Shown: in pieces, positions 4,206 to 15,915 of the stretch
Position numbering within the stretch: the first letter of the stretch is position 1
How the letters are laid out: each line of letters starts with the position of its first letter
Virus record (IMG/VR): IMGVR_UViG_3300050495_000032
Source of the DNA: a virus
Reading direction: 5' to 3' (one strand)
DNA: 15,915 bases
Made by a program: the position numbers and the translations under genes
Notes under the pieces: model-generated
Databases searched by the model: none
Told to the model about the DNA's origin: nothing
The model's input: the letters and a program-made list of their open reading frames with translations, nothing else

Positions 4206-4699
4206 CGTGAAGGGCCTTGTATTAATCTGTTCTGCGCATCAAGCCTTATGTACCCGCATTCGATCAACACCACGTAAGGGGTGCCGGCGCTCGTAGTACT
4301 GTTGGCATATTGCAGGTAACTTTTTGGAAAGTCAACGTTAACCCAATTATCGAATGTTGTTGTGTTCCTACGGTACGGGATTGCCCCTGTAGTGAACACC
4401 ATATCATTCAGGGTAAGAATTGGAATTGTTTGCCCTTTCTCCCAACCTTCTGCATATATGGTAACCGACATCTTTGCCAGTTCAGCGGCCGGCGCAGTTG
4501 GGTTGCCGCTTATGATCCCATTGGTAAGAACTTCGGCCGAAATGAGCCGCATCCATTTAATTACGATCTTCTGATCTATCGTTGATCGCAATTGTGAAAT
4601 ATCGGGAAACGGCACACGCTGCACGCCGGCGGTAGGCACGTTTACTTCGATAAGTATCGACGGGCCGCGCGGTTCATCCTGCACTAATACTTGTTGCAT
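4202..4699 (-). CDS. Jelly-roll-like capsid-associated protein candidate (penton or small capsid protein)
   Basis: 165 aa, beta-rich, no TM segment. It lies immediately downstream of the major capsid candidate and is translationally coupled to the next gene. Confidence 0.4.
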   Translation of the reverse strand: MQQVLVQDEPRGPSILIEVNVPTAGVQRVPFPDISQLRSTIDQKIVIKWMRLISAEVLTNGIISGNPTAPAAELAKMSVTIYAEGWEKGQTIPILTLNDMVFTTGAIPYRRNTTTFDNWVNVDFPKSYLQYANSTTSAGTPYVVLIECGYIRLDAQNRLIQGPSR

Positions 4700-4728
4700 G
4701 TGATAGAATTTAAAGAGCGATTAAAGAG

Positions 4729-4753
4729 GGCGTCCGGCACGCAGCCGGACGCC
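4729..4753 (-). terminator. Perfect 10-bp GC hairpin downstream of the capsid candidate (terminator or RNA-stabilising stem-loop)
   Basis: ggcgtccggc-acgca-gccggacgcc. On the minus strand it is followed by CTCTTTAATCGCTCTTT, which is T-rich but interrupted. Confidence 0.55.
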
Positions 4754-4785
4754 GCAACTTATCAGGCTTGCTATGCCAAGCGATT

Positions 4786-5493
4786 TTAGTTTACTACTGT
4801 ACTGTTCTGTGCCAGTACCCCGCGATAGATCAATATGCACCGCATAAATGCGGCAGCACTTGCCAGCGCCCCAGGTAAAACAATTTCGGGAACGTAGTTT
4901 TTACTGCCGATCAACAGCAAGTTTGGTTCCTGTGTGATAAAGCCATCCTCAGCCCCGCGGAACTGATCCTTTGGAGATCCCGCACCCAATGCCGCGGTTT
5001 GCTGCGTCTGTGGTTTGTACCAGTGATTTAGCAGCCCCCTGTACGGTATGATCACATCATTGTTAACTTTCGTTGACAGATAACCGTTTGAGTAAAATGT
5101 AGAATCGAGGGCGGCCGCATCGGCAGCGGCAAATACCTGCGTATTACCGTAGGAGTTAAGCAGGTAAGCGGTATCTGTTCGGCTTGTAGGCTGTGCCACA
5201 AAAATTCCGTATTCGGATACTACCAATGAATCTTGAAGCTGTAAACGATTTTCGGTATTGAAAATTACGTTCGTACTGTTGGCCTGATTGGGTGTTACAC
5301 CGAAAGCAAACCGGTTATTGGCTGTATTTAGCTCAACTTCTAGTCTTATTTCGTGCTGGGAAAGCTTTCTTGCATTCACCCAATCCCAACATTTGCGCGA
5401 ATCCTGCCCGAAGCTTTGGATCCACGAATTAAAAAGAACTTGCTTTGCAATGTCGTAACTCATGCGAGCACTTTGGTTGTTCGTGCTATTCAT
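4786..5493 (-). CDS. Major capsid protein candidate (235 aa)
   Basis: Track ORF 4786..5502 starts at TTG, so I prefer the ATG at 5493 (MNSTNNQ). It is Asn/Gln/Ser/Thr-rich, beta-rich and has no TM segment. It is the only gene in the structural block isolated by hairpins on both sides, each within a roughly 90-115-nt untranslated flank. Confidence 0.4.
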   Translation of the reverse strand: MNSTNNQSARMSYDIAKQVLFNSWIQSFGQDSRKCWDWVNARKLSQHEIRLEVELNTANNRFAFGVTPNQANSTNVIFNTENRLQLQDSLVVSEYGIFVAQPTSRTDTAYLLNSYGNTQVFAAADAAALDSTFYSNGYLSTKVNNDVIIPYRGLLNHWYKPQTQQTAALGAGSPKDQFRGAEDGFITQEPNLLLIGSKNYVPEIVLPGALASAAAFMRCILIYRGVLAQNSTVVN

Positions 5494-5617: not shown

Positions 5618-6232
5618 TCAATTCATGTAATCAGATCCGGTATTCGTTATCCCGCTGCCACCATCGCAATTTCCAATCGAGCCCATTACGCCACTACCGG
5701 AAGGGATGTAGGCACCCACACCGGAACCGGCGGGCGTATATCCATTGACACGAAACCCTTGCAATTGCGCAGGCGTCCTGCCGGCCAGTTGCGGCGGCGT
5801 TCCACCGATCACCGGTACGTTTTGGTAACCGGCCATCCTATGCCGGCCGATCACCGGTACATTTTGGTAACCGCTGATAACGCCCATTACACGTAACGCG
5901 CGTTTAAGGCCAGCGCCTACCATTATACCCCCGGCAATCTTCTGCACCATCCCGGATGTACCCGAAGATCTGCGCAGCAATAGCAACCCACCGATACCAA
6001 TTTCACCAGCTGTAGCGGCGATCTGTGCGTTTTTAGTCGGCACCGGCACAGGATCCGTGGTTTTTGGTAAGATCTTATCAATTTGTGTGTTAACGACGCC
6101 ACCCAGGAACCAACCCCCGGCAACAGCCGCCAATTTCAAACCGATGTCTTTACTCCCCAGTTTCAACCCACCAATTCCCCCACGACGACGGCGGCGACGG
6201 TGATGCGTTCTGTGTTTTTTTCTGTGTGACAT
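5618..6232 (-). CDS. Basic N-terminus plus Gly-rich multi-hydrophobic-segment membrane protein
   Basis: The N-terminus is MSHRKKHRTHHRRRRRRGG. It is followed by the hydrophobic segments LKLAAVAGGWFLGGVV, IAATAGEIGIGGLLLL and IAGGIMVGAGL, and by an internal GYQNVPVIG x2 repeat. Confidence 0.65.
   Translation of the reverse strand: MSHRKKHRTHHRRRRRRGGIGGLKLGSKDIGLKLAAVAGGWFLGGVVNTQIDKILPKTTDPVPVPTKNAQIAATAGEIGIGGLLLLRRSSGTSGMVQKIAGGIMVGAGLKRALRVMGVISGYQNVPVIGRHRMAGYQNVPVIGGTPPQLAGRTPAQLQGFRVNGYTPAGSGVGAYIPSGSGVMGSIGNCDGGSGITNTGSDYMN
5805..5873 (-). repeat. Intragenic direct repeat (27 nt x2, 26/27 identical, 42-nt period)
   Basis: ccgatcaccggtacGttttggtaaccg at 5805-5831 and ccgatcaccggtacAttttggtaaccg at 5847-5873. 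Each copy encodes GYQNVPVIG. Confidence 0.9.
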
Positions 6233-6260: not shown

Positions 6261-6863
6261 TTAAGCGTAGTACTCGATGTTTCCTGTCGTATTCACGTAA
6301 TCGTATACGTTCTTTACTTCGTCATCGGAACTTGTGTTCAGGCTGTTGATAATTTTTGTGATCGCATCGGCAGCCAGCCCGGCGGCGATCGCATAGTTTA
6401 CTATTTCCTGCGATTGGCTGTTTCTGGTCAAATTGCTGGTTTGCGAAACCTGCGGCAGTTGGTAGTTTGTAGGGTACTGTGTGGCTGTGGTCGTTTGCTT
6501 TTTTGTAAGCAGGTAGAGTGCCAAAGCCCCCAGGCCCAAACCGATCAACATTTTGTTGCTACCACCGCTGCCCCCCACACTTCGCCGGCGCGGCCGGCTG
6601 CCGGCCATTACAACCCGGCGTTTACGAGGCCTTGCATGGGTAGTAGTATGTTTACGGCGTCGTTTGCGTTTCCTGCCGGTCATTACGCGCTCAACGCTGC
6701 GGCGTTCAACCTGTTTAACCACCTTGCGGCCGCTGCGGCGTTTACGCCGTTTAGTTGGTTTCTTTTTAACAGATCCCGTTACTTTTCTTTTACGGGGCCT
6801 GTTCCGTTTTGTGGCAACCCTTTTTTTCCTGGCTTTGGGTTTCGACCGGTGTTTTTTTGCCAT
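6261..6863 (-). CDS. Polybasic (protamine-like) domain fused to a TM anchor; candidate membrane-tethered genome-condensing protein
   Basis: Roughly half of the first ~100 residues are Lys/Arg (MAKKHRSKPKARKKRVATKRNRPRKRK...RPRRRS). This is followed by a GGSGGS linker, the TM segment MLIGLGLGALALYLL, and a ~65-aa C-terminal domain. Confidence 0.6.
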   Translation of the reverse strand: MAKKHRSKPKARKKRVATKRNRPRKRKVTGSVKKKPTKRRKRRSGRKVVKQVERRSVERVMTGRKRKRRRKHTTTHARPRKRRVVMAGSRPRRRSVGGSGGSNKMLIGLGLGALALYLLTKKQTTTATQYPTNYQLPQVSQTSNLTRNSQSQEIVNYAIAAGLAADAITKIINSLNTSSDDEVKNVYDYVNTTGNIEYYA

Positions 6864-6868
6864 TGAGT

Positions 6869-7663
6869 TTATTTTTTAGCCATCAAATAAAATAGCAACC
6901 CCAACCCACCAACGAATGCAAGCTTACGACGCCTTCCCAAAAAATTTTCCCCGCTAATTGCAACGGCGGTTAAACCTGCTAAGGCCGCCAAAGGCACTAT
7001 GTTGTTTTTAACAGCCGTCGAAAAATCGGTTTGTAATGGGGTTGTGGTTGTGGTAACCTGCGCAGCTGTTGGTGTCGTTGCGGTAGTGGTGGTTGTCGGG
7101 GTAGCCGTAAACACCACATTGCCCCCGGGATCTGAAGTTACCGGTGGTAGTGTTTGAACCTGCGGAATCGGGTCACTCACTGTTTGGGTTGCAGGATCCG
7201 CGCCGCCACTTTCGTAAAAGGTGCCGGAACTACCGCCGGCATAGCCCGCGGTATCTTTTGCCAATGCCGGTTCCTGCATATGAAGAAGTAACGCCCCAGC
7301 TGTGCCGGCGGCGTTCTCAATTCTTTGTATCTCGTAAAGAGGTAAGTAAGCTGTTGATGTGACGTGTTCAGGATCCTGCCATTTAAAAATGCTGCCATCG
7401 TTGGGGTAAACGTAGTAGCCGGCCGCTGTAATGTCGTTTATTGCGTGCGACATTAGCCAGTCGTACCGGGCCTGCATTTCTATGTGGTAGGCATCCTGCG
7501 ATGCTTGCTGCTGTTCCTGGTATATAGCAGGATCCGAAAAAGGAGAGGGCAGCACTGAAGTTGTTGGCGCATCAAGTAAAGTAATAGAAGGTGCGGAGTA
7601 AAGCGATAAGCCTACAGATCTGCCGTTATCTACGAAACCTCCAATATTTCTATATAATCCCAT
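6869..7663 (-). CDS. Membrane-anchored protein with a Thr-rich linker
   Basis: 264 aa. A globular N-domain is followed by TATPTTTTTATTPTAAQVTTTTTP and then two C-terminal hydrophobic segments (IVPLAALAGLTAVAI, LAFVGGLGLLFYLMA). Confidence 0.6.
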   Translation of the reverse strand: MGLYRNIGGFVDNGRSVGLSLYSAPSITLLDAPTTSVLPSPFSDPAIYQEQQQASQDAYHIEMQARYDWLMSHAINDITAAGYYVYPNDGSIFKWQDPEHVTSTAYLPLYEIQRIENAAGTAGALLLHMQEPALAKDTAGYAGGSSGTFYESGGADPATQTVSDPIPQVQTLPPVTSDPGGNVVFTATPTTTTTATTPTAAQVTTTTTPLQTDFSTAVKNNIVPLAALAGLTAVAISGENFLGRRRKLAFVGGLGLLFYLMAKK

Positions 7664-7693
7664 GCCTCACAATTTCAAACACACAAAAGAAAA

Positions 7694-8116
7694 TCAGTTC
7701 TTTTTGCTACTGAAATAGCCACGTATTAAAGCAGCACCTAAAACAGAGATAGCCACTACCGGCAACACCTGTGTAAGTATCTTTTCATACCACGTTTGTT
7801 CAGCGGCATTTTTATCGGCTTCGGTTTGTGCCCCCTGCGATTGCAGGACGTCAATATTAAAGTCCCCGCTGTGATGTGGCATGTAATAGTAATCCCCGGT
7901 TGCCCCTGGATAAAAGATCCACCATAACGTGTTTCGGTTTCGAGCGGGATCCTGATCCAACCAACCATATACTGTACCCGCTATATCCCCCGATTGAAAA
8001 GTACCTGCGGGGGTAGGTATATACCCTGTATCCGGCGGGTGTAAATAATAGGGCAACGCCTTGTTGGTAACAAGGGCCTTATCAATTATTTCTGAAGCAT
8101 CATATACATCAGCCAT
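7694..8116 (-). CDS. Hypothetical protein with a C-terminal TM anchor (140 aa)
   Basis: The track ORF start at 8203 overlaps the upstream gene by 86 nt. The ATG at 8116 (MADVYDASE) lies 1 nt after the upstream TAG. The C-terminal TM segment is ILTQVLPVVAISVLGAALI. Confidence 0.6.
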   Translation of the reverse strand: MADVYDASEIIDKALVTNKALPYYLHPPDTGYIPTPAGTFQSGDIAGTVYGWLDQDPARNRNTLWWIFYPGATGDYYYMPHHSGDFNIDVLQSQGAQTEADKNAAEQTWYEKILTQVLPVVAISVLGAALIRGYFSSKKN

Positions 8117-8117
8117 A

Positions 8118-8627
8118 CTACACAGGTTTGCGAACAATAACAGAAGGCGTACTACCGCTGCCGGGCGTAGGATCCAACCAAATCTCCCAATCACCATCTT
8201 CAATACTCACATAAACATGATATGGTTCCTTTGCCCTACCGTACCCCACAAAGCAAAATGACGCATCAAAGCAGCAGCCGTACAACCTATTGAGCGATCC
8301 GATTACCCCGGCATTAAAAAGCGCATAATGTTTGCAATCCCCATAACCCCGGTGTAAAATCCCAGTAGGAATTGCCGATGTTTGACTATCAACAGGTTCC
8401 TCCCGGTAATGTATGTAGCTTTTGCAAAAACTAAACAAACGATCCGCAACTACCAGCGGATCCCGATCGTAGAAGTAGTCACTGAATGTGTCGTAGTACT
8501 TCCCATACAACCGGTGAGCGTAACAGATCTCGTTAATGATATCGGGCACGTATTGCCGCTTAGTGACCAATTGCCATTCGTCACGGTACGTCGGCAGCCT
8601 CGACAAAACTTTATCCGCTGTTATCAT
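8118..8627 (-). CDS. Transglutaminase-like cysteine peptidase-fold protein
   Basis: The ordered Cys-His-Asp pattern of the transglutaminase-core superfamily is present: GYGDCKHYALF ... PYHVYVSIEDGDWEIWLDPT (G-x-C-x2-[FY]A, H-x-[WY]-x, DPT). Confidence 0.55.
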   Translation of the reverse strand: MITADKVLSRLPTYRDEWQLVTKRQYVPDIINEICYAHRLYGKYYDTFSDYFYDRDPLVVADRLFSFCKSYIHYREEPVDSQTSAIPTGILHRGYGDCKHYALFNAGVIGSLNRLYGCCFDASFCFVGYGRAKEPYHVYVSIEDGDWEIWLDPTPGSGSTPSVIVRKPV

Positions 8628-8632
8628 ACCCG

Positions 8633-9475
8633 TTAAAAATTTTCTTCGACTTCACTCCAAACAAACCACAAAGCAGCGCCAACAGCGGCCGCCTTTAACG
8701 GATCGGTTTTTACAAAGGATATGAATTTATCTAAAAGTGTTCCGGTACCCGTCGATGTGGTACCGGTTCCCGGATCGGTATCTATATCTGACGTAAGCCC
8801 CGTCGAAGGCCCAGCGGCCAACATTCCATTTACAAATTGCTGTCCGTTGAAACCGGGGCCTGTATAATACTTGTTCCTGTTTTGGTTATCGTCATCGTTG
8901 CGCATTTCAGGAACGGGCGCAACCAAAGGGTATTGGTCAAAAATTGAAAGGTTCCAGCACGTATTGTTGTATGTACTACCGGGAAAAAAGTTCTTTTTTA
9001 AAAACACAGCACGTTCAACCGCTGCCCGGGGTTGATCCATTCTATTTGGATTGTTATTATAATAAGCATCTACTCCTTGCTCAAGCCTCGTAAGGTCAAT
9101 ATCATTATTGATACGAACACCAAAAAGCATTGTAAACACCAAACGGGCCGTTGGAACAATTTCGTCGGGAACGTCATCGGGAACAATATTTCCCTGGCAT
9201 TGGATCTGATCAAGTAAACGCTCCCCCAACACATACTCGCCCGTTGAATACCGTCTACCGTTAATGATGGATCGAAACAACCCGGGCAGATCCCACAGCG
9301 CACCGCTGAAGTTCAACAAAGCGTCTTTAATCGGGCCATCCGGTAATATGCTGTTCCAAATACCGTTTCTAATTTTTACCAGATCCCCAACACTTAAGCC
9401 CGATGCCGTTGTACCGGATAATGGTACTTGACCCTGCGGTACCAGATTGCTATATAACCCGGTTGTAGTTGGCAT
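8633..9475 (-). CDS. Hypothetical virion protein with a C-terminal hydrophobic anchor (280 aa)
   Basis: Its ATG overlaps the upstream TAA as TAATG at 9477-9473. It has a TGTGTTSTGTGT linker followed by LKAAAVGAALWFVW. Confidence 0.6.
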   Translation of the reverse strand: MPTTTGLYSNLVPQGQVPLSGTTASGLSVGDLVKIRNGIWNSILPDGPIKDALLNFSGALWDLPGLFRSIINGRRYSTGEYVLGERLLDQIQCQGNIVPDDVPDEIVPTARLVFTMLFGVRINNDIDLTRLEQGVDAYYNNNPNRMDQPRAAVERAVFLKKNFFPGSTYNNTCWNLSIFDQYPLVAPVPEMRNDDDNQNRNKYYTGPGFNGQQFVNGMLAAGPSTGLTSDIDTDPGTGTTSTGTGTLLDKFISFVKTDPLKAAAVGAALWFVWSEVEENF

Positions 9476-9918
9476 TATACCCCCACGTTATATGTTAAGC
9501 TGAAAGGTTGCTGCATACCGTTTGCATTGACAGCACCGGCAACAACGAGCGCACGTTGACCAACACCACCCGTTAAAATTGCAATGATATCATTAACGAT
9601 TCCCAACGGTTGTAACCGTAGGGTTAACGGTATTTGCCCCTGACTGTTGGCCGGCACGGTTACAGGCACGAAATCGGACACATTTCCGATCAATGTGCCG
9701 TTGCTGGTCACAGATCCCGCCAAACTGTTAATTGTGAAAGTGAGATTGCTAGTGTTCTGAATTACGAGAGTTGCGTAAACTACAGGTGTTAAACCATCGA
9801 GAGAAATCCCGGTAATGTTACCCGGAAAGTAGGTTAAATTATTGGCTGCCCTTGATAAGTTCCATATGTAAATACCAGCAGCCCCCGCCAAAATCAACAG
9901 CACATCAAGCCCGGTCAT
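9475..9918 (-). CDS. N-terminally anchored membrane protein with a LEA_2/WHy-like beta-sandwich pattern
   Basis: The TM segment is LDVLLILAGAAGIYIW. It is followed by ATLVIQNTSNLTFTINSLAGSVTSNGTLIGN...VPANSQGQIPLTLRL, which resembles the LEA14/NDR1-type motif. This is the first gene of the structural block. Confidence 0.4.
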   Translation of the reverse strand: MTGLDVLLILAGAAGIYIWNLSRAANNLTYFPGNITGISLDGLTPVVYATLVIQNTSNLTFTINSLAGSVTSNGTLIGNVSDFVPVTVPANSQGQIPLTLRLQPLGIVNDIIAILTGGVGQRALVVAGAVNANGMQQPFSLTYNVGV

Positions 9919-10076: not shown

Positions 10077-10478
10077 TTACTGAAAATACCCACTCTGTCG
10101 ATGCAAAAGCACCTTTTTTATATCGTTTGGGCAAATTATTCTCCAATGTCCGGGTTCACCATGTACCGGTATTGAGAAACCGACTTGAAACATCTTCAAA
10201 CGCCGTTCCATACAGTCTTTATCTGTCAAATTGCGCCACCGGAGTAATTTCCACTCACTATCCATTACGTACTCACATTCGAGCGTCCACAGTTTACCGG
10301 CCGCGCCCATTTCCATCAACTCCTTTGCCACATCCGAGATATAGGATTTTGGCCCGTCGGGTACATCAAAGACCGGTTTTGGGTTTGTTTGCACCAACGT
10401 GTTTTTTTCCTGGATGTCTTTTTTTAATTGATCCATTCGCGCCTGTACTTCGGGCGTCGGTTTCTGCTCGTTGCTCAT
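10077..10478 (-). CDS. Hypothetical protein (133 aa); its 5' 113 nt overlap the Rep 3' end in another frame
   Basis: ATG at 10478 and TAA at 10077. The composition is well balanced and not shadow-like. No motif recognised. Confidence 0.55.
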   Translation of the reverse strand: MSNEQKPTPEVQARMDQLKKDIQEKNTLVQTNPKPVFDVPDGPKSYISDVAKELMEMGAAGKLWTLECEYVMDSEWKLLRWRNLTDKDCMERRLKMFQVGFSIPVHGEPGHWRIICPNDIKKVLLHRQSGYFQ

Positions 10479-11730
10479 TGTCGAAGGTTGTTTGAATGAA
10501 AGAATTTAGTATGTATAGGTGCTTTTCCAGCAAGGGCGGCGGCCCAAATAACCAGGGTACGAATGTTGCAAAGTTCATTTTGAACACGCGAACCCGATTA
10601 AGGAAAGATCCAAAGCCCAGGTTCTTAAATTCGGTAAGTGTAAATGTGACAGCTGTAAAAAGGCATGAAAAGCCACGGCTATTATGAAACGCCAAATGCG
10701 GGAACTCACTATCGTTTTTGGTAATGTACTTCGTCAGGTAGTTTGCCAATGCAACAGATCCCTTTTTGATTGCGAAATTGATAACGCGTTTTGTTTTGCG
10801 ATGCTTTGAAATGTCGACGCCGTTGTATTTTGAAATAGAAGGTAGGTAGTAGGTTTTGCCGTTATTGCCACATACAGCCCCAGGCATTGAACCCTTTTTG
10901 GCAAGGTTTTTTAAGATCTCCCGCATTCGAAGATTGGCATGGTGCACGTTCATGTAATGGGGAATAGCTATGTGAAAGTGTATTGTGTTTGTGGGATCCT
11001 TATCTTCTTTTAAACGGTCACCGGTTTGACGTTCAGCAATCCATAGGTAGTCCTTTAGCTTATTGGTTTGTCGTAACGTAGTTAACCACGTATTAAAAGC
11101 CTGATAGCAAACGTTATCGGGAGTATGAGCCGGGAACGTCACCGTCCAAAAAAACAGTTCTTTTTTGCCTTTTTGGGTGTTCAGGTAAGCCAAAATCCGA
11201 CCCCTTACCTTCGCCTTGTTAACCCTATACGACTTTTTCCGGTCTTTTTTAGTCAAAAGTTGTTCAGAATCAGGGGAAAAATTTTCTTGTGTGCCAATTT
11301 CTTGCGATATTGCACCCGAACCGCATAAATAGCGATCCGGTTCATCTAATAACAATAACTTTTGAAGGTTGGGGGGCGTCCCGACCTTCTTTTTTTTGCC
11401 CTTGTCTGTATCTGGTTTCTGCGATTCTTTTTTCAACTCTTTACTACTAAGCCATAAACGCCCATTGATGTCAACCGCGCACGCTTCAGATCCTTTGTAA
11501 CGCTCCTTAAACCTGCGTTCATGCAGGAATGTAACGCCCGTTGACGTTAGCTTTAGTTTTAGATCTGGATCCGACCCGCCGGTCATTGATGGTACTTCGC
11601 CTAACTTGATACCTGGAACATTTGGAACGCATGAACTGGGAATTTCGCCGCGAATTTTGCGGATATACGGTGGAGGCGGCTGTAAAGAGAAAGCAGATAG
11701 CGGATTGCTATCACATGCAGGGCGTTGCAT
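10366..11730 (-). CDS. Rolling-circle replication initiator (HUH endonuclease, phiX174 gpA-like two-tyrosine type)
   Basis: Motif I is FFWTVTF (11134-11154). Motif II, the HUH motif, is HFHIAI (10963-10980). Motif III is YLTKYITK (10717-10740), with two Tyr separated by three residues. The motifs occur in the canonical order. The ~190-aa N-terminal extension carries a Lys-rich tract. Confidence 0.85.
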   Translation of the reverse strand: MQRPACDSNPLSAFSLQPPPPYIRKIRGEIPSSCVPNVPGIKLGEVPSMTGGSDPDLKLKLTSTGVTFLHERRFKERYKGSEACAVDINGRLWLSSKELKKESQKPDTDKGKKKKVGTPPNLQKLLLLDEPDRYLCGSGAISQEIGTQENFSPDSEQLLTKKDRKKSYRVNKAKVRGRILAYLNTQKGKKELFFWTVTFPAHTPDNVCYQAFNTWLTTLRQTNKLKDYLWIAERQTGDRLKEDKDPTNTIHFHIAIPHYMNVHHANLRMREILKNLAKKGSMPGAVCGNNGKTYYLPSISKYNGVDISKHRKTKRVINFAIKKGSVALANYLTKYITKNDSEFPHLAFHNSRGFSCLFTAVTFTLTEFKNLGFGSFLNRVRVFKMNFATFVPWLFGPPPLLEKHLYILNSFIQTTFDNEQRAETDARSTGANGSIKKRHPGKKHVGANKPKTGL

Positions 11731-11768: not shown

Positions 11769-11799
11769 CAAATATAGGGGAAAGTGGTTATAAAACAAC
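11769..11799 (-). promoter_or_regulatory. Candidate Bacteroidota-type promoter for rep (-7 TATATTTG, -33-like GTTG, 19-nt spacer)
   Basis: The minus strand reads GTTG-N19-TATATTTG, a perfect TAnnTTTG box. The box ends 38 nt upstream of the rep ATG. It is the only perfect TAnnTTTG I found in the intergenic upstream regions I scanned by eye. Confidence 0.35.
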
Positions 11800-12045
11800 A
11801 GCCTGTATAGACGCCCCAGGCGTTTCACCAGACACCATTGAGGTCGGCGCATCTATAAACGCGCAATCATGAGTTGTATCCGGGTTGTAACAAACTGAAA
11901 GGATCGGCAAAGCCGGCTTATAGAATCTGTTGTAACCAACGCTCAACATATCACTCTTAAGAACAGGTGCATCAGTAGGAAATGATTTTAAGTACTCGAT
12001 CAAATTACCAACGGTTACTATTTCTGTTATGTCGTTGTTACCCAT
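11788..12045 (-). CDS. Hypothetical protein (85 aa)
   Basis: ATG start, TAA stop, packed 13 nt after the upstream gene. Confidence 0.55.
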   Translation of the reverse strand: MGNNDITEIVTVGNLIEYLKSFPTDAPVLKSDMLSVGYNRFYKPALPILSVCYNPDTTHDCAFIDAPTSMVSGETPGASIQAVVL

Positions 12046-12058
12046 AGATGTACATGGT

Positions 12059-12373
12059 TTATCTATTAATAAAATGTAACATTGCCAATACCACGTTGAT
12101 AGTAGTCATTACCACAACAAACCAGAAACCAAACCACCAACGGGAATTTGCTGTTAACGGGATCCGTCGTTCGTCTATTTCCACAAAATCAGAATCATAG
12201 TACAGTCTTGTGTCGTTCGCCACATGCCACCCGCAATTCTCCAGGTAGGTGCCCACACGCCAGTAATCGGGGCCGCCCAAACGACCCGACCAAAGCACCC
12301 AGTAGTGGCCGCTCTTACGTCCACCCTTCGCCGAAGGCGAAAAAATTTTTTTATTTTGAGTAGTCAAAAGCAT
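12059..12373 (-). CDS. Hypothetical protein with a C-terminal TM segment (104 aa)
   Basis: ATG start. The Trp-rich soluble part is followed by WWFGFWFVVVMTTINVVLAMLHF. Confidence 0.55.
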   Translation of the reverse strand: MLLTTQNKKIFSPSAKGGRKSGHYWVLWSGRLGGPDYWRVGTYLENCGWHVANDTRLYYDSDFVEIDERRIPLTANSRWWFGFWFVVVMTTINVVLAMLHFINR

Positions 12374-12477: not shown

Positions 12478-12615
12478 TTATTCCTGGAATGCCACCAACA
12501 GATCTGCGTCTACCACTTGCCACATATCCGGGGTAAATGGAATCAGTTCAAATTGATCAGGATCCGCTACGGTGCCCCACGGCAAAGTTTCGAAAGATAG
12601 AATAGTAAGGATCAT
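12478..12615 (-). CDS. Possible 45-aa ORF (MILTILSFETLPWGTVADPDQFELIPFTPDMWQVVDADLLVAFQE)
   Basis: Hand-translated and below the track cutoff. It fills part of an otherwise empty 285-nt gap. An imperfect hairpin (12445-12478) follows it. Confidence 0.3.
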   Translation of the reverse strand: MILTILSFETLPWGTVADPDQFELIPFTPDMWQVVDADLLVAFQE

Positions 12616-12658: not shown

Positions 12659-12862
12659 CTAATCGCTATTGCCTAACAGGTAGTAAGGTTCGTCGGCCGT
12701 TTCCGGGCCGTCGTAATCGCCGTCACTCATACAGTCCTGTATAGCCATAATCGTAATTTCCTTAATGCTCAGTTCCGGTTTCTTCTCTTTTTTCCGATTT
12801 TGTTTTTTCCTACGCTCCATTTGCTTCATGGCAGCGTCGTTGAATAGATATAACTGCACCAT
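12659..12862 (-). CDS. Hypothetical small protein (67 aa, basic KKQNRKKEKK tract then an acidic tail)
   Basis: The track ORF start at 12916 lies inside the large palindrome. I trimmed it to the ATG at 12862 (MVQLYLF). It ends TAG-TGA. Confidence 0.5.
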   Translation of the reverse strand: MVQLYLFNDAAMKQMERRKKQNRKKEKKPELSIKEITIMAIQDCMSDGDYDGPETADEPYYLLGNSD

Positions 12863-12876
12863 AGTAGCGTATTTTG

Positions 12877-12993
12877 GCCAACATAGCCTATAAACTTTCC
12901 TTCTGCATTGACGCACCGTTGATTTTGCCGGGCACCCCGGACAAAAATCAACAGTCCGTCAATGCAGAAGGAAAGTTTATAGGCTATGTTGGC
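12877..12993. repeat. 117-nt near-perfect palindrome (long hairpin/cruciform); candidate replication origin element
   Basis: The outer arms 12877-12913 and 12957-12993 are perfect 37-nt reverse complements. The inner arms are 12918-12926 and 12944-12952 (9 bp). The apex is ccggg-cac-cccgg (12928-12940). The element is essentially intergenic. Confidence 0.9.
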
Positions 12994-13247
12994 ATTTCGG
13001 AATTGTCGAAAGGATCTATCTTTCCTAAAACGGCATCGTTATACGCATCCACGCCCCGTTTAACAGCCTTTTCTGTTCGGTCATCCATCTTCATTGCCAA
13101 CCAAACACTAACCGCTAAATCGGCTTTATTACCATCCGTGCGTACAAATACCCTTCGATCACCGTCGGGTTGTTCGTAGAAAACAATCTCAATACGAGAT
13201 CTTCGCACGCTACCGGTCAGCAAACCCCAAAGTTTAGCCCTGATCAT
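12984..13247 (-). CDS. Hypothetical protein (87 aa)
   Basis: ATG start. The TAG stop and the last 10 nt lie inside the right arm of the palindrome. Confidence 0.55.
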   Translation of the reverse strand: MIRAKLWGLLTGSVRRSRIEIVFYEQPDGDRRVFVRTDGNKADLAVSVWLAMKMDDRTEKAVKRGVDAYNDAVLGKIDPFDNSEMPT

Positions 13248-13489: not shown

Positions 13490-13592
13490 ACGCAAAAATT
13501 TAATCGTTTAACCATCAAGCCGTTAACTTTCCATTTTTTGAAAAGTTCGGCGCTTTATAAATCCATAGGGCCCGAAATTCAAAAGTTCATCC

Positions 13593-13947: not shown

Positions 13948-14253
13948 TTATGTTAATTGAGCAGTCAACCGGTCATTTTGCCCCCGGTGCCATATAATGG
14001 AATGGTAGCGCACATTGGTGCCCGAATAAAATTCAACTACGTTTTTTACATCGGTGTACCCAAAACCTGGTTTGTCCTGACAGGGATCACAGATGTACGC
14101 AACCCCCTGATCCTTTGCCCCTGTGATGAAATTACCCTATTTAGGAAACCCCCAGGTTATTGTTACCGGCACTTGTACCATGGTCGGGATACCGGTCAGG
14201 GGACCGCCACAGGCGCAACACCGGCAATACTTTACAATTTCTTCAGCCAACAT
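13948..14253 (-). CDS. Zinc-ribbon-like ORF (101 codons) interrupted by a single in-frame TAG at 14137-14139
   Basis: Hand-translated: MLAEEIVKYCRCCACGGPLTGIPTMVQVPVTITWGFPK-TAG-GNFITGAKDQGVAYICDPCQDKPGFGYTDVKNVVEFYSGTNVRYHSIIWHRGQNDRLTAQLT-TAA. It exactly fills the only large gap (13932-14271) in the gene array. The CxxC pairs lie on either side of the TAG, and the second half has no ATG. Confidence 0.45.
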
Positions 14254-14486: not shown

Positions 14487-14786
14487 TTAATCAAAAGGTT
14501 TCTGTTTACCAAACCCGGAATAATACTCATGGATCAACGGCTTACTGTGAAACGCCCGGATAATTCCAACACCACCCTTAAATATTAACTGCACAATTTT
14601 AGCCGGTTCTTCATTTGCACACCCCTTTAAGCTATCCGCATAGATACATACCGGGTAACCGTTGCGTTGTTCGTTGGTGTCTATAAAGCCGAAAAAGGTA
14701 CGAGCAGAAACACCGTACTTTTTGCATAGCTCATCCAATTCTTTATCAAAACTGTTGATGTGGTCAATTGCCTCTTCACGTGTCAT
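14487..14786 (-). CDS. Hypothetical protein (99 aa), probable paralogue of 14808..15068
   Basis: It shares MT(R/D)(E/R)E...(L/V)C(K/E)K...x29...DSL(K/N)G spacing with its neighbour. Confidence 0.55.
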   Translation of the reverse strand: MTREEAIDHINSFDKELDELCKKYGVSARTFFGFIDTNEQRNGYPVCIYADSLKGCANEEPAKIVQLIFKGGVGIIRAFHSKPLIHEYYSGFGKQKPFD

Positions 14787-14807: not shown

Positions 14808-15068
14808 TTAGTTGCCGTCACTGTCCGGATTAGTTAGCCCTTTACTACGTGTCGGGTTCTCCCATCCAGCATCCCGCAGCATAGTGTTTAGCCTGACAAC
14901 AATGTGCTTAAGAAATGTACCGTTTAAACTATCTGTTGGATCAAAGACAGCGAAAGTATTGTCCGTACTATCCGGAGAGATCCAAAGCCCAGCCAAACCG
15001 CGCAGTTTGTGCTTTTCACACACTGCACCGAGATCTTTGTAAACTTCCTGCATTTCCCGATCTGTCAT
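14808..15068 (-). CDS. Hypothetical protein (86 aa)
   Basis: The track start at 15104 lies inside a terminator hairpin. I trimmed it to the ATG at 15068 (MTDREMQEV). Confidence 0.55.
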   Translation of the reverse strand: MTDREMQEVYKDLGAVCEKHKLRGLAGLWISPDSTDNTFAVFDPTDSLNGTFLKHIVVRLNTMLRDAGWENPTRSKGLTNPDSDGN

Positions 15069-15093
15069 ATAGATAAAATTTGTTTGTAGTAAT

Positions 15094-15122
15094 AAAAAGC
15101 GCAAGGTGGAAACCCCGCGCTT
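15094..15122 (-). terminator. Intrinsic terminator (8-bp stem with two G-U pairs on the minus-strand RNA, T5 run)
   Basis: Minus strand reads GCGCGGGG-TTTCCA-CCTTGCGC-TTTTTATT. The two mismatches on the plus strand are G-U wobbles on the minus strand. Confidence 0.65.
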
Positions 15123-15654: not shown

Positions 15655-15915
15655 TTATTCCTGATGAGGATGATGCGCAATTTCTTTCGGCACGAACTGG
15701 GGCAGGTACTGGTAGTTCGCTATAACAGGATACAATCCCAGTAAAGCAAACGCGTCGCGTGTGCATGGTACAGGCAGCGCAATTTCTATAAGGTCAGTGC
15801 CCTCAAACATATCCCTTATCGAATCTTCATTAAACTTACCGGCGCCGGCCAAACTATCTGAATAGCCGTACCCACCATGCCGCCAGTACATCGTAATATT
15901 CTCATCGGAGTATTT
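15655..15915 (-). CDS. Hypothetical protein, C-terminal part of the junction-spanning ORF (same gene as 1..208)
   Basis: Track ORF 15655..15891 stays open to the window end. Through the circular junction it continues to the ATG at 208, giving 113 aa in total. Confidence 0.6.
   Translation of the reverse strand, partial: KYSDENITMYWRHGGYGYSDSLAGAGKFNEDSIRDMFEGTDLIEIALPVPCTRDAFALLGLYPVIANYQYLPQFVPKEIAHHPHQE
15789..15915. repeat. Terminal direct repeat, copy 2
   Basis: Identical to 1-127. The unique genome length is therefore 15,788 bp. Confidence 0.95.

Follow-up and report, generated by a model that had tools for sequence, protein, structure and literature searches.

A clade-specific DNA hairpin under structural selection, a candidate single-strand origin, in an uncultured virus family linked to Bacteroidota

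The palindrome and its genomic setting

The stretch of DNA analysed here (the window, 15,915 nt) begins and ends with an exact direct repeat of 127 nt (1-127 = 15789-15915, repeat finder) and is therefore a circularly assembled genome of about 15,788 bp. Every long ORF is on the minus strand. The cumulative GC skew is monotonic, without a switch point anywhere in the window, which is uninformative since all genes are co-oriented. The palindrome is intergenic, between the minus-strand ORFs 12984-13247 and 12659-12862. The relevant features are as follows.

12877..12993, no strand: whole palindrome (hairpin or cruciform element), 117 nt; repeat finder, DNA fold, syntenic counterparts in 10 other genomes
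12877..12913, no strand: outer arm, 37 nt, perfectly paired with 12957-12993
12957..12993, no strand: outer arm, 37 nt; its last 10 nt overlap the 3' end of ORF 12984-13247
12984..12986, minus: stop codon TAG of ORF 12984-13247, inside the palindrome arm
12887..12895, plus: duplex motif copy 1, CCTATAAAC; family form CCTA[T/A/C][A/T]AAC
12975..12983, minus: duplex motif copy 2, CCTATAAAC, reading GTTTATAGG on the plus strand
12914..12956, no strand: imperfect asymmetric apex with C-C and C-A/G-T mismatches, a 9-bp stem, a 5-bp apex stem and a loop
12928..12932 and 12936..12940: the 5-bp apex stem, closing the loop cac at 12933-12935 (DNA fold)
12984..13247, minus: upstream gene, 87 aa, without known family, part of the variable region
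12659..12862, minus: 67 aa counted from ATG, present in this genome only; first gene past the palindrome
12478..12615, 12059..12373 and 11788..12045: genes of families E, F and A, which follow 12659-12862 and are themselves followed by Rep
10366..11730, minus: Rep, HUH-type rolling-circle initiator with motifs FWTVTF, HFHIAI and YLTKYITK
13535..13567, minus: conserved element TATGGATTTATAAAGCGCCGAACTTTTCAAAAA in the intergenic gap 13496-13592; candidate double-strand origin, possibly also a promoter

The repeat finder and the DNA fold reproduce exactly what the first-pass annotation had described, namely a near-perfect 117-nt palindrome with 37-nt arms, nested 9-bp and 5-bp stems and a cac loop. 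Taken further inwards, the arms 12877-12926 and 12944-12993 (50 nt each) are 96% complementary by the repeat finder and by direct reading. Folded as DNA, the plus strand of the palindrome reaches -59.7 kcal/mol (z = -15.6) and the coding (minus) strand -63.8 kcal/mol (z = -16.6), with 0 of 200 shuffles as stable in either case. It is the sole hairpin in the window with at least 12 matched pairs (8-mer seed search). The terminator-like hairpins of the window have 5-11 pairs, and there is no T-run beside the palindrome on either strand (flanks ATTTCGG on plus, CAAAATACG on minus), so the earlier remark that it is far longer than the terminator hairpins and lacks a T-run holds. So does the placement of Rep about 1.1 kb downstream on the minus strand, the distance to the Rep start being 1147 nt. 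Both the missing T-run and the absence of the palindrome from the list of terminator-like sites led us to reject an intrinsic terminator as an explanation.

The first-pass annotation had also raised the possibility of an assembly chimera. An independent megahit contig (L001, ENA; k=141) is identical to the window throughout, and both this k and the 127-nt circularising overlap exceed the 117 nt of the palindrome. Since single k-mers bridge the palindrome together with both of its differing flanks, an assembly chimera and a collapsed hairpin end are excluded. A hairpin telomere, a telomere resolution site and a rolling-hairpin terminus were likewise rejected: the centre is asymmetric (17-65 nt across genomes), the flanks differ and k-mers of 127 and 141 nt span them.

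Rep is named HUH-type from its motifs and not from family membership, because database support is weak. It has motif I (FWTVTF), HFH and the tyrosine pair Y331-x3-Y335 that characterise two-tyrosine HUH proteins, and residues H251, F252, H253, Y331, K334, Y335 and K338 are invariant among 32 aligned sequences. Pfam PF23343 (REP_ORF2-G2P) scores 18.5 bits, under the 27.8 cut-off, and there are no sequence matches to Rep in PDB and no matches in NCBIfam. The best HUH matches in Foldseek (AAV Rep, RepB) are non-significant at E 0.08-0.2; hhalign against phiX174 gpA (E 0.048, also not significant) aligns motif III (YxxKYxxK) only. Rep is unrelated to the 447-aa protein of FLiP (7510-8853 of the FLiP genome), which we take to be the Rep of that phage, and FLiP has no comparable palindrome.

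More than 690 relatives of Rep were found, many of them on 15-17-kb contigs from soil and rhizosphere metagenomes. All 61 relatives in genome collections come from Bacteroidota, which is therefore the likely host phylum, and the virus belongs to a large uncultured family linked to Bacteroidota. Rep, a 2-kb region and the 33-nt element at 13535-13567 are all absent from INPHARED phages and PLSDB plasmids; IMG/VR gave no close match, and a profile search of it returned 4 contigs. Further genes code for a lysozyme, two arginine-rich proteins and a 235-aa capsid candidate that is 78-98% identical across the family and whose AlphaFold model was unusable (pLDDT 38.7). Comparison of the structural proteins with PHROGs, Pfam and NCBIfam found nothing, and no packaging ATPase was detected in the genome.

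Conservation and covariation among relatives

Loci were compared with Rep set on the plus strand, and only contigs reaching the palindrome site were counted. All 11 distinct genomes that cover the syntenic site (the window and 10 others, Rep at least ~53% identical) have a palindrome there. The palindromes are 109-200 nt long. They are found 0.63-1.5 kb ahead of Rep, and the conserved 33-nt element precedes them on the coding strand by 0.57-1.06 kb (start to start). The lengths in the other genomes are given below.

L004: 178 nt
L005: 117 nt
L007 = L082 = L154: 133 nt, identical in two independent samples
L008: 200 nt
L009: at least 109 nt (at contig end)
L011: 177 nt
L035: at least 190 nt (at contig end)
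L086: 141 nt
L087: 161 nt
L152: 168 nt

The gene order is variable small genes, palindrome, families D, E, F and A, Rep and family C, so that the palindrome marks the head of a conserved gene block that ends in Rep. The arm takes in the upstream stop codon, by 0-28 nt, and 15-170 nt separate the palindrome from the start of the next gene. As the overlap with the upstream gene is only 0-28 nt, the arms are mostly noncoding, and an origin of the outer arms by copying of upstream coding sequence was rejected on the same ground.

Each palindrome is built of four layers. The outermost is an arm of 10-49 bp that differs among genomes; it is followed by the 9-bp motif CCTA[T/A/C][A/T]AAC, by a further perfect stem of 10-18 bp (38 bp in L011) and, innermost, by an imperfect asymmetric apex of 17-65 nt. 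All 11 palindromes contain the motif, in the form CCTAWAAAC, as two inverted copies, and such a pair is present nowhere else. This pair is the only invariant sequence of the palindromes; the spacing between its two copies is 62-136 nt, and its distance to the base and to the apex varies. The orientation of the apex asymmetry is constant among relatives: the extra T on the Rep-sense 5' side is also present in L086, the closest relative, and the spacer orientation is the same in L007 and L154, which are one virus from two independent samples. The Rep-sense strand folds slightly better in 10 of the 11 palindromes, which is weak evidence.

The outer stems are uninterrupted over 37-70 bp, and in ten genomes all of their 531 pairs are Watson-Crick, none being of the G-U type; the low-coverage L005 has three stem mismatches. 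In two groups, the window with L086 and L005 with L007 and L009, inner stem and apex are held in common while the outer arms are unrelated and yet perfectly paired. For a covariation count each arm was anchored independently on its own motif copy, giving 29 aligned pairs. Double (compensatory) changes were found in 22 of the 29 (101 cells), one-sided (G-U/G-T) changes in none, and 99.7% of cells are paired. None of 500 shuffles reached the observed values, and slid controls gave 34-46% pairing. The structure came from the same sequences that were tested; given the arm anchoring, the slid controls and an identity of 38% between genomes at the non-motif stem positions, the result is robust. Persistence of the structure despite sequence drift, the main check proposed in the first-pass annotation, is thus strongly borne out within the clade, which supports a structure-dependent cis element. 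The palindrome is a clade-specific DNA hairpin under structural selection. It is, moreover, a clean example from nature of two DNA arms evolving in concert, all 531 pairs remaining Watson-Crick despite ~60% divergence.

The conservation stops at the border of this clade. No hairpin of at least 16 bp was found near Rep in relatives whose Rep is ~48% identical or less (L014, L015, L020-L022, L032, L056, L071, L072, L075/L083, L084 and others), and their syntenic site has no outstanding fold, the best z values being scattered at -3 to -4.6 as against -8.1 for L007. The palindrome is also absent from the integrated or genomic copies in Bacteroidota. This distribution marks it as a clade-specific acquisition that is not essential to the family, so the genomes without a palindrome must prime in a different way. 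Relatives without a hairpin at the syntenic position had been named in advance as evidence against an origin at this site, and the outcome is split, with the palindrome kept in all 11 clade genomes and missing from the relatives at or below ~48% Rep identity. As far as BLAST shows, the gene families D, E, F and A are limited to the palindrome clade too.

A family-wide element as candidate nick site

On the coding strand, the 33-nt element at 13535-13567 precedes the palindrome by 541 nt; by whole-genome comparison it is 88-100% identical even in distant relatives. It has the form TGGATTTAT-N13-TTTCAAA and is shared also by relatives without a palindrome. The spacing between TGGATT[T/C]AT and [A/T]TTCAA is exactly 13 nt in 71 of 72 distinct copies, with a variable, G+C-rich middle, and all 72 are on the Rep strand and upstream of Rep. 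In several clades the element stands 20-60 nt ahead of the rep start codon, which is its ancestral placement. In Bacteroidales genome copies, 3-4 direct iterons (AACCTATAAT or AACCTTTAAT) precede and abut the TGGATTTAT core. Iterons together with an AT-rich invariant core just ahead of rep are the arrangement typical of a double-strand origin (dso) in rolling-circle replicons. Genomes of the palindrome clade have no iterons next to their 33-nt element, and two or three small genes separate it from the palindrome.

The 33-nt element is a much better candidate for the nick site than the palindrome, and we infer that nicking takes place there and not in the palindrome. A nick region is expected to be conserved across the Rep family; 13535-13567 is so conserved, the palindrome is not. 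The element may double as a promoter; it matches neither the sigma-70 nor the Bacteroidota -33/-7 consensus. A stem-loop around the TGGATTTAT core was looked for and rejected, the best stems being of 3-7 bp at scattered positions, and no covariation was seen between variants of the arm motif and variants of the 33-nt element.

There is some resemblance to the phiX174 origin (CAACTTG followed by ATATTAATAAC...), the family element TGGATTTATATAAC agreeing with TTGATATTAATAAC at 10 of 14 positions. Rep and phiX174 gpA also have HFH and the YxxKYxxK pattern in common (YLTKYITK in Rep, YVAKYVNK in gpA). The phiX174 origin sits within gene A whereas the family element is intergenic, and the likeness, in AT-rich sequence and without a test, should be regarded as a lead only.

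Possible roles of the palindrome

The palindrome can be described as a cis-acting DNA hairpin that works in single-stranded form, most likely as a single-strand (complementary- or lagging-strand) origin (sso), an identification to which we give somewhat less than an even chance. It is most likely an sso of a new type and not a dso. The reading is favoured because the palindrome is the only outstanding structure in the genome and a rolling-circle (RCR) replicon requires some lagging-strand start. As in ssos generally, the site is noncoding, the replicon encodes an HUH initiator, and ~100-200 nt of intrastrand pairing are conserved as structure and not as sequence. Compensatory pairing, the lack of wobble, the duplex motif and the constant apex orientation together point to a hairpin selected, or continually re-symmetrised, as DNA, and its action is probably at the DNA level.

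The palindrome would be active as ssDNA during rolling-circle replication and possibly also in the virion strand. Nicking of the coding strand by Rep would occur at the family-wide element, which lies on the 5' side of the palindrome at a distance of ~0.55 kb, and the displaced strand would fold into the 37-70-bp duplex stem. With the rest of the strand SSB-coated, the motif CCTAWAAAC/GTTTWTAGG in the stem could be where the priming machinery lands, be it host RNA polymerase or primase or a protein of the phage, and the second strand would be initiated at the hairpin. Priming of second-strand synthesis by the palindrome is what we infer from these features; an sso is recognised by orientation-specific second-strand synthesis and reduced accumulation of ssDNA, and the constant orientation of the apex asymmetry gives an indirect hint of such orientation dependence. 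The stem has no recognisable promoter-like pattern: a sigma-70 scan gave no enrichment (19 found, 25.5 expected), the Bacteroidota -33/-7 pattern is absent and TAnnTTTG is under-represented.

Among known systems, the palindrome appears most like the ssos of RCR plasmids. ssoA is ~160 nt long and primed by RNA polymerase, and five interchangeable sso classes have been described (PMC5703833, PMC4595007). The classes are host-limited and found at recombination boundaries (PMC5703833, PMC4595007); a conserved RSB motif lies within otherwise divergent hairpins, and the position of the sso is flexible (PMC5703833). Like the ssoA/palA elements of pT181, pE194 and pMV158, the palindrome is an extended hairpin of ~110-200 nt in a noncoding gap of an HUH-Rep replicon, in which structure prevails over sequence and a short motif is embedded in a divergent stem, RSB in the plasmids and CCTAWAAAC in our case. 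Further points in common are that the distance to rep is not fixed, that the site is at a cassette or recombination boundary and that the classes are restricted by lineage or host (PMC5703833, PMC4595007).

The differences are equally clear. palA is imperfect and strictly strand-specific, whereas the arms here are perfectly Watson-Crick paired and nearly symmetric. The ssoA signatures, RSB in the stem and CS-6 (TAGCGT/A) in the terminal loop, are absent: there is no TAGCG in the palindrome of the window, the 11 loops or spacers have no common sequence, and the TAGCGG of L005, L007 and L009 lies within the stem and is not general. The palindrome would not be placed in ssoA on these grounds, and neither Rfam nor the annotated records offer a match for it. 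We would class it as an sso-like hairpin whose arms are perfectly concerted and whose duplex motif is peculiar to it, from a Bacteroidota virus family without cultured members. We know of no sso class described for Bacteroidota. The start of the second strand in rolling-circle replicons of this phylum is uncharacterised, and the virus family, widespread and with genomes of ~15-16 kb, has no isolate; two concrete cis elements are offered here, namely the hairpin, whose duplex motif is invariant, and a candidate nick site present throughout the family.

The minus-origin hairpins [B] and [C] of the Ff phages (f1/M13) provide a second parallel, as they too present a duplex surface for primer synthesis on the viral strand of a Rep-encoding phage. 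The Ff minus origin consists of two imperfect hairpins that mimic a sigma-70 promoter directly 5' of the nick, and many RCR plasmids also have their sso 5' of the nick. Here, in contrast, a single perfect hairpin without a promoter-like pattern lies on the 3' side of the candidate nick, at 0.55 kb, and the analogy presupposes an ssDNA virion, which is an assumption in our case. Several observations speak against an sso: the palindrome is just 3' of the candidate nick where the f1 minus origin is 5', its symmetry is near-perfect while known ssos are imperfect and strand-specific, all ssoA signature motifs are missing, and relatives with the same Rep core and 33-nt element (Rep ~48% identical or less) lack a comparable hairpin anywhere. 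As D, E, F and A are confined to the palindrome clade, a regulatory link to that module is equally compatible with the distribution.

A more far-reaching version would have the ~15.8-kb genome packaged as ssDNA and the palindrome as a new Bacteroidota class of complementary-strand origin, with hairpin-corrected arms and a motif that recruits priming. The arms would then be kept identical by hairpin-templated correction at every single-stranded stage. To our knowledge, ~15.8 kb would rank among the largest ssDNA phage genomes, and we consider this version improbable.

The first alternative to a single-strand origin places the function in RNA. As part of a polycistronic early mRNA, the palindrome would on transcription form a long dsRNA hairpin that serves as an RNase III processing site or as a 3'-end stabiliser or barrier, separating the variable early genes from the D-E-F-A-Rep module. 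Its situation suits such a role, as it lies at the boundary of the two gene modules and fills the entire gap between co-oriented genes, from a stop codon 0-28 nt inside the arm to a start 15-170 nt after the palindrome; the strand of mRNA sense is also the one that folds slightly better (10/11). RNase III acts on ~20 bp or more of dsRNA, and such a helix would form if the region is transcribed, although stems of 37-70 bp far exceed this need. The early-gene RNase III sites of T7 are likewise intergenic between co-transcribed genes and without a U-tract. They are ~50-60 nt long and have internal loops and non-canonical pairs, in contrast to the 37-70 bp of uninterrupted Watson-Crick pairing without G-U and with a conserved duplex motif seen here. 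RNA helices under selection usually tolerate G-U, and the lack of G-U-type pairs (0 of 531) and of one-sided changes is easier to reconcile with pairing at the DNA level, or with correction templated by the hairpin, than with an RNA helix. For dsRNA recognition, a duplex motif that is conserved and sequence-specific would be unusual, and there is no U-tract while ordinary hairpin-plus-T terminators occur elsewhere in the genome. A known RNA family was rejected, Rfam giving only sub-threshold, generic matches to miRNA precursors on both strands. An RNA-level role is in our opinion unlikely, if the least so of the alternatives to an sso.

Somewhat less probable is a protein-binding control site in duplex or cruciform DNA, where the inverted CCTAWAAAC copies would be bound by Rep or by a small clade-specific protein, regulating replication or the expression of the downstream replication module. 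For Rep, the palindrome would be a distant accessory locus comparable to the 'bind' locus of pMV158 RepB, a second recognition site separate from the nick (PMC1851628). The motif pair being the only invariant sequence, and the co-occurrence of the palindrome with the clade-specific genes D, E, F and A, are in line with this. The iteron core CCTATAA of the Bacteroidales copies, which flanks the nick-like core of these distant family members, resembles the arm motif, and the palindrome-clade genomes have no iterons beside their own 33-nt element; the resemblance is, however, that of a 7-mer in AT-rich sequence. The repeats at the pMV158 'bind' locus are direct and 84 bp from the nick, while here the motif copies are inverted within a long palindrome, at 0.55-1 kb from the candidate nick. 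Their spacing of 62-136 nt is incompatible with a fixed dimer on B-DNA, and an operator would leave the 10-49 bp of perfectly paired, non-conserved outer arm unexplained.

It is less likely still that the palindrome is a by-product of intrastrand template switching or mismatch correction in a replicon that is single-stranded part of the time, and is non-functional or at most a recombination hotspot. Perfect arms would be expected from such a process, and so would the rapid turnover of the outer arms in length and sequence even where inner stem and apex are shared, the exact location at the junction of variable and conserved regions and the absence from other clades. It does not account for the retention of one syntenic site in all 11 covering genomes, with Rep down to ~53-55% identity, or for the conserved internal motif and the conserved 10-18-bp stem within it. 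Long palindromes are normally unstable in bacteria (SbcCD), so its retention implies a benefit, and the palindrome should be useful for studying how long palindromes persist instead of being destroyed.

The first-pass annotation had proposed an sso and/or a dso. The sso remains the best single reading, with the structure conserved within the clade; the dso is not supported, as the apex or spacer is not conserved, the palindrome is missing at Rep identities of ~48% and below and there is a better 33-nt candidate elsewhere. In such an origin Rep would nick the apex loop or the arm motif of an extruded cruciform. Many HUH Reps nick within hairpin loops, a long palindrome extrudes readily in supercoiled RF and the motif is present once per strand. 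Yet the apex differs even where the inner stem is shared (L087 compared with L005, L007 and L009), perfect duplex encloses the motif whether the DNA is linear or a cruciform, the palindrome is missing from distant relatives whose catalytic core is the same, and TGGATTTAT-N13-TTTCAAA, with its fixed spacing (71/72), constant Rep strand and ancestral position directly upstream of rep, is far better suited. We therefore regard a dso in the palindrome as very improbable.

Equally remote is another role of a single-stranded hairpin, as a packaging signal of the filamentous-phage kind or a host-recombinase site like CTXphi attP(+): both of these use a long viral-strand hairpin with a specific duplex motif and distant Rep relatives are integrated in Bacteroidota chromosomes, but no integrated copy from the palindrome clade was found (the best genome match, at 42% Rep identity, is a free 13.7-kb contig), the genome has a lysozyme gene and a structural module that does not look filamentous, and no dif-like sequence was recognised.

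The palindrome, whatever its role, leaves a trace in short-k assemblies. The k=31 Logan contigs of three further relatives end at the expected palindrome position: L088, which has the same Rep as L087, starts 30 nt (k-1) inside the palindrome arm of L087, and the contigs L089 and L153 start just ahead of the gene that normally comes next after the palindrome. Such breaks are the expected behaviour of a de Bruijn graph at a real inverted repeat, and in practice the palindrome splits short-k assemblies of these viruses at a predictable point.

The conserved element and repeats near Rep

A conserved element shared across the family is the strongest candidate for the nick region of rolling-circle replication; its place in the window is:

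13535-13567, minus strand: conserved element aTGGATTtAT-N13-TTTCAAAca

It is represented by 72 distinct copies in the relatives compared with the window (loci L004-L115), is found on the strand encoding Rep, the HUH-type rolling-circle initiator, in every case, and in several clades is followed by the rep start codon 20-60 nt downstream. The element possibly combines a promoter role with that of the nick region.

The contig of the closest relative, L086 (NODE_131_length_16373, linear, assembled by metaSPAdes), starts 2 nt ahead of the element's TGGATTTAT core. This start could be accidental, or it could mark a physical DNA terminus where nicking occurs. L095, a chromosomal contig of Riemerella columbipharyngis, carries the conserved TGGATTTAT...TTCAA element twice, at 14246 and 19470 with 5.2 kb between the copies, which might be the borders of an integrated element.

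In the copies from Bacteroidales/Prolixibacteraceae genomes, the conserved core is abutted by 3-4 direct iterons, AACCTATAAT or AACCTTTAAT, distributed as follows:

Iterons some 50 nt 5' of the TGGATTTAT core: L091, L092, L094, L096, L097, L099-L101, L106, L107, L109, L112 and L115

The iteron core CCTATAA is similar to CCTATAAAC, the 9-bp motif present once in each arm of the 117-nt palindrome (12877-12993). In L047, a distant relative with 37% Rep identity, a 33-nt unit is repeated in 6.2 tandem copies (4562-4765, 96% matches). The array lies upstream of Rep, at a distance of about 0.4-0.6 kb, and may consist of iterons or be regulatory.

Genome form and virus family

Positions 1-127 and 15789-15915 of the window form an exact 127-nt terminal direct repeat, therefore the genome was assembled as a circle of ~15,788 bp. 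Every credible gene lies on the minus strand, and the cumulative GC skew changes monotonically. The virus is part of a large family without cultured members, made up of circular elements of ~15-17 kb that come from soil and rhizosphere. Rep has more than 690 homologues and a 235-aa protein more than 640, none of them in INPHARED. All Rep relatives from genome collections belong to Bacteroidota, and some of them, located within large chromosomal contigs, are possible prophages.

Candidate structural and DNA-condensing proteins

Three minus-strand genes are relevant here:

4786-5493, minus strand: 235-aa protein of constant length across the genomes compared
5618-6232, minus strand: protein with an extremely arginine/lysine-rich N-terminus (MSHRKKHRTHHRRRRRRGG...)
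6261-6863, minus strand: adjacent protein with an N-terminus of the same kind (MAKKHRSKPKARKKR...)

The 235-aa protein, the probable major capsid protein, keeps 78-98% identity between genomes in which Rep identity is only 55-80%. It gave no family hit, and its AlphaFold model was unusable (pLDDT 38.7). No packaging ATPase was found anywhere in the window genome, which, together with the arginine/lysine-rich pair, is reminiscent of the DNA-condensing proteins of ssDNA phages. The 5618-6232 gene contains an internal 27-nt direct repeat (5805-5831 and 5847-5873, 96% identical, 42 nt apart), which gives rise to the repeated peptide ..GYQNVPVIG..

Sequences around and similar to the palindrome

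Each genome encodes several paralogous copies of a ~90-aa protein family (MT..Q...FY.....V..K....G..G.WF..):

Window: 14808-15104 and 14487-14786
L004: 8644-8913
L086: 782-1063
L011: 2802-3325

Most clade members have one such copy directly after the palindrome, whereas in the window the copy is sited elsewhere. The palindrome's inner stem and apex (12908-12962) are 74-80% similar to 9878-9908, at the 5' end of the 9475-9918 gene (repeat-finder pairs D10 and I5), probably by chance.
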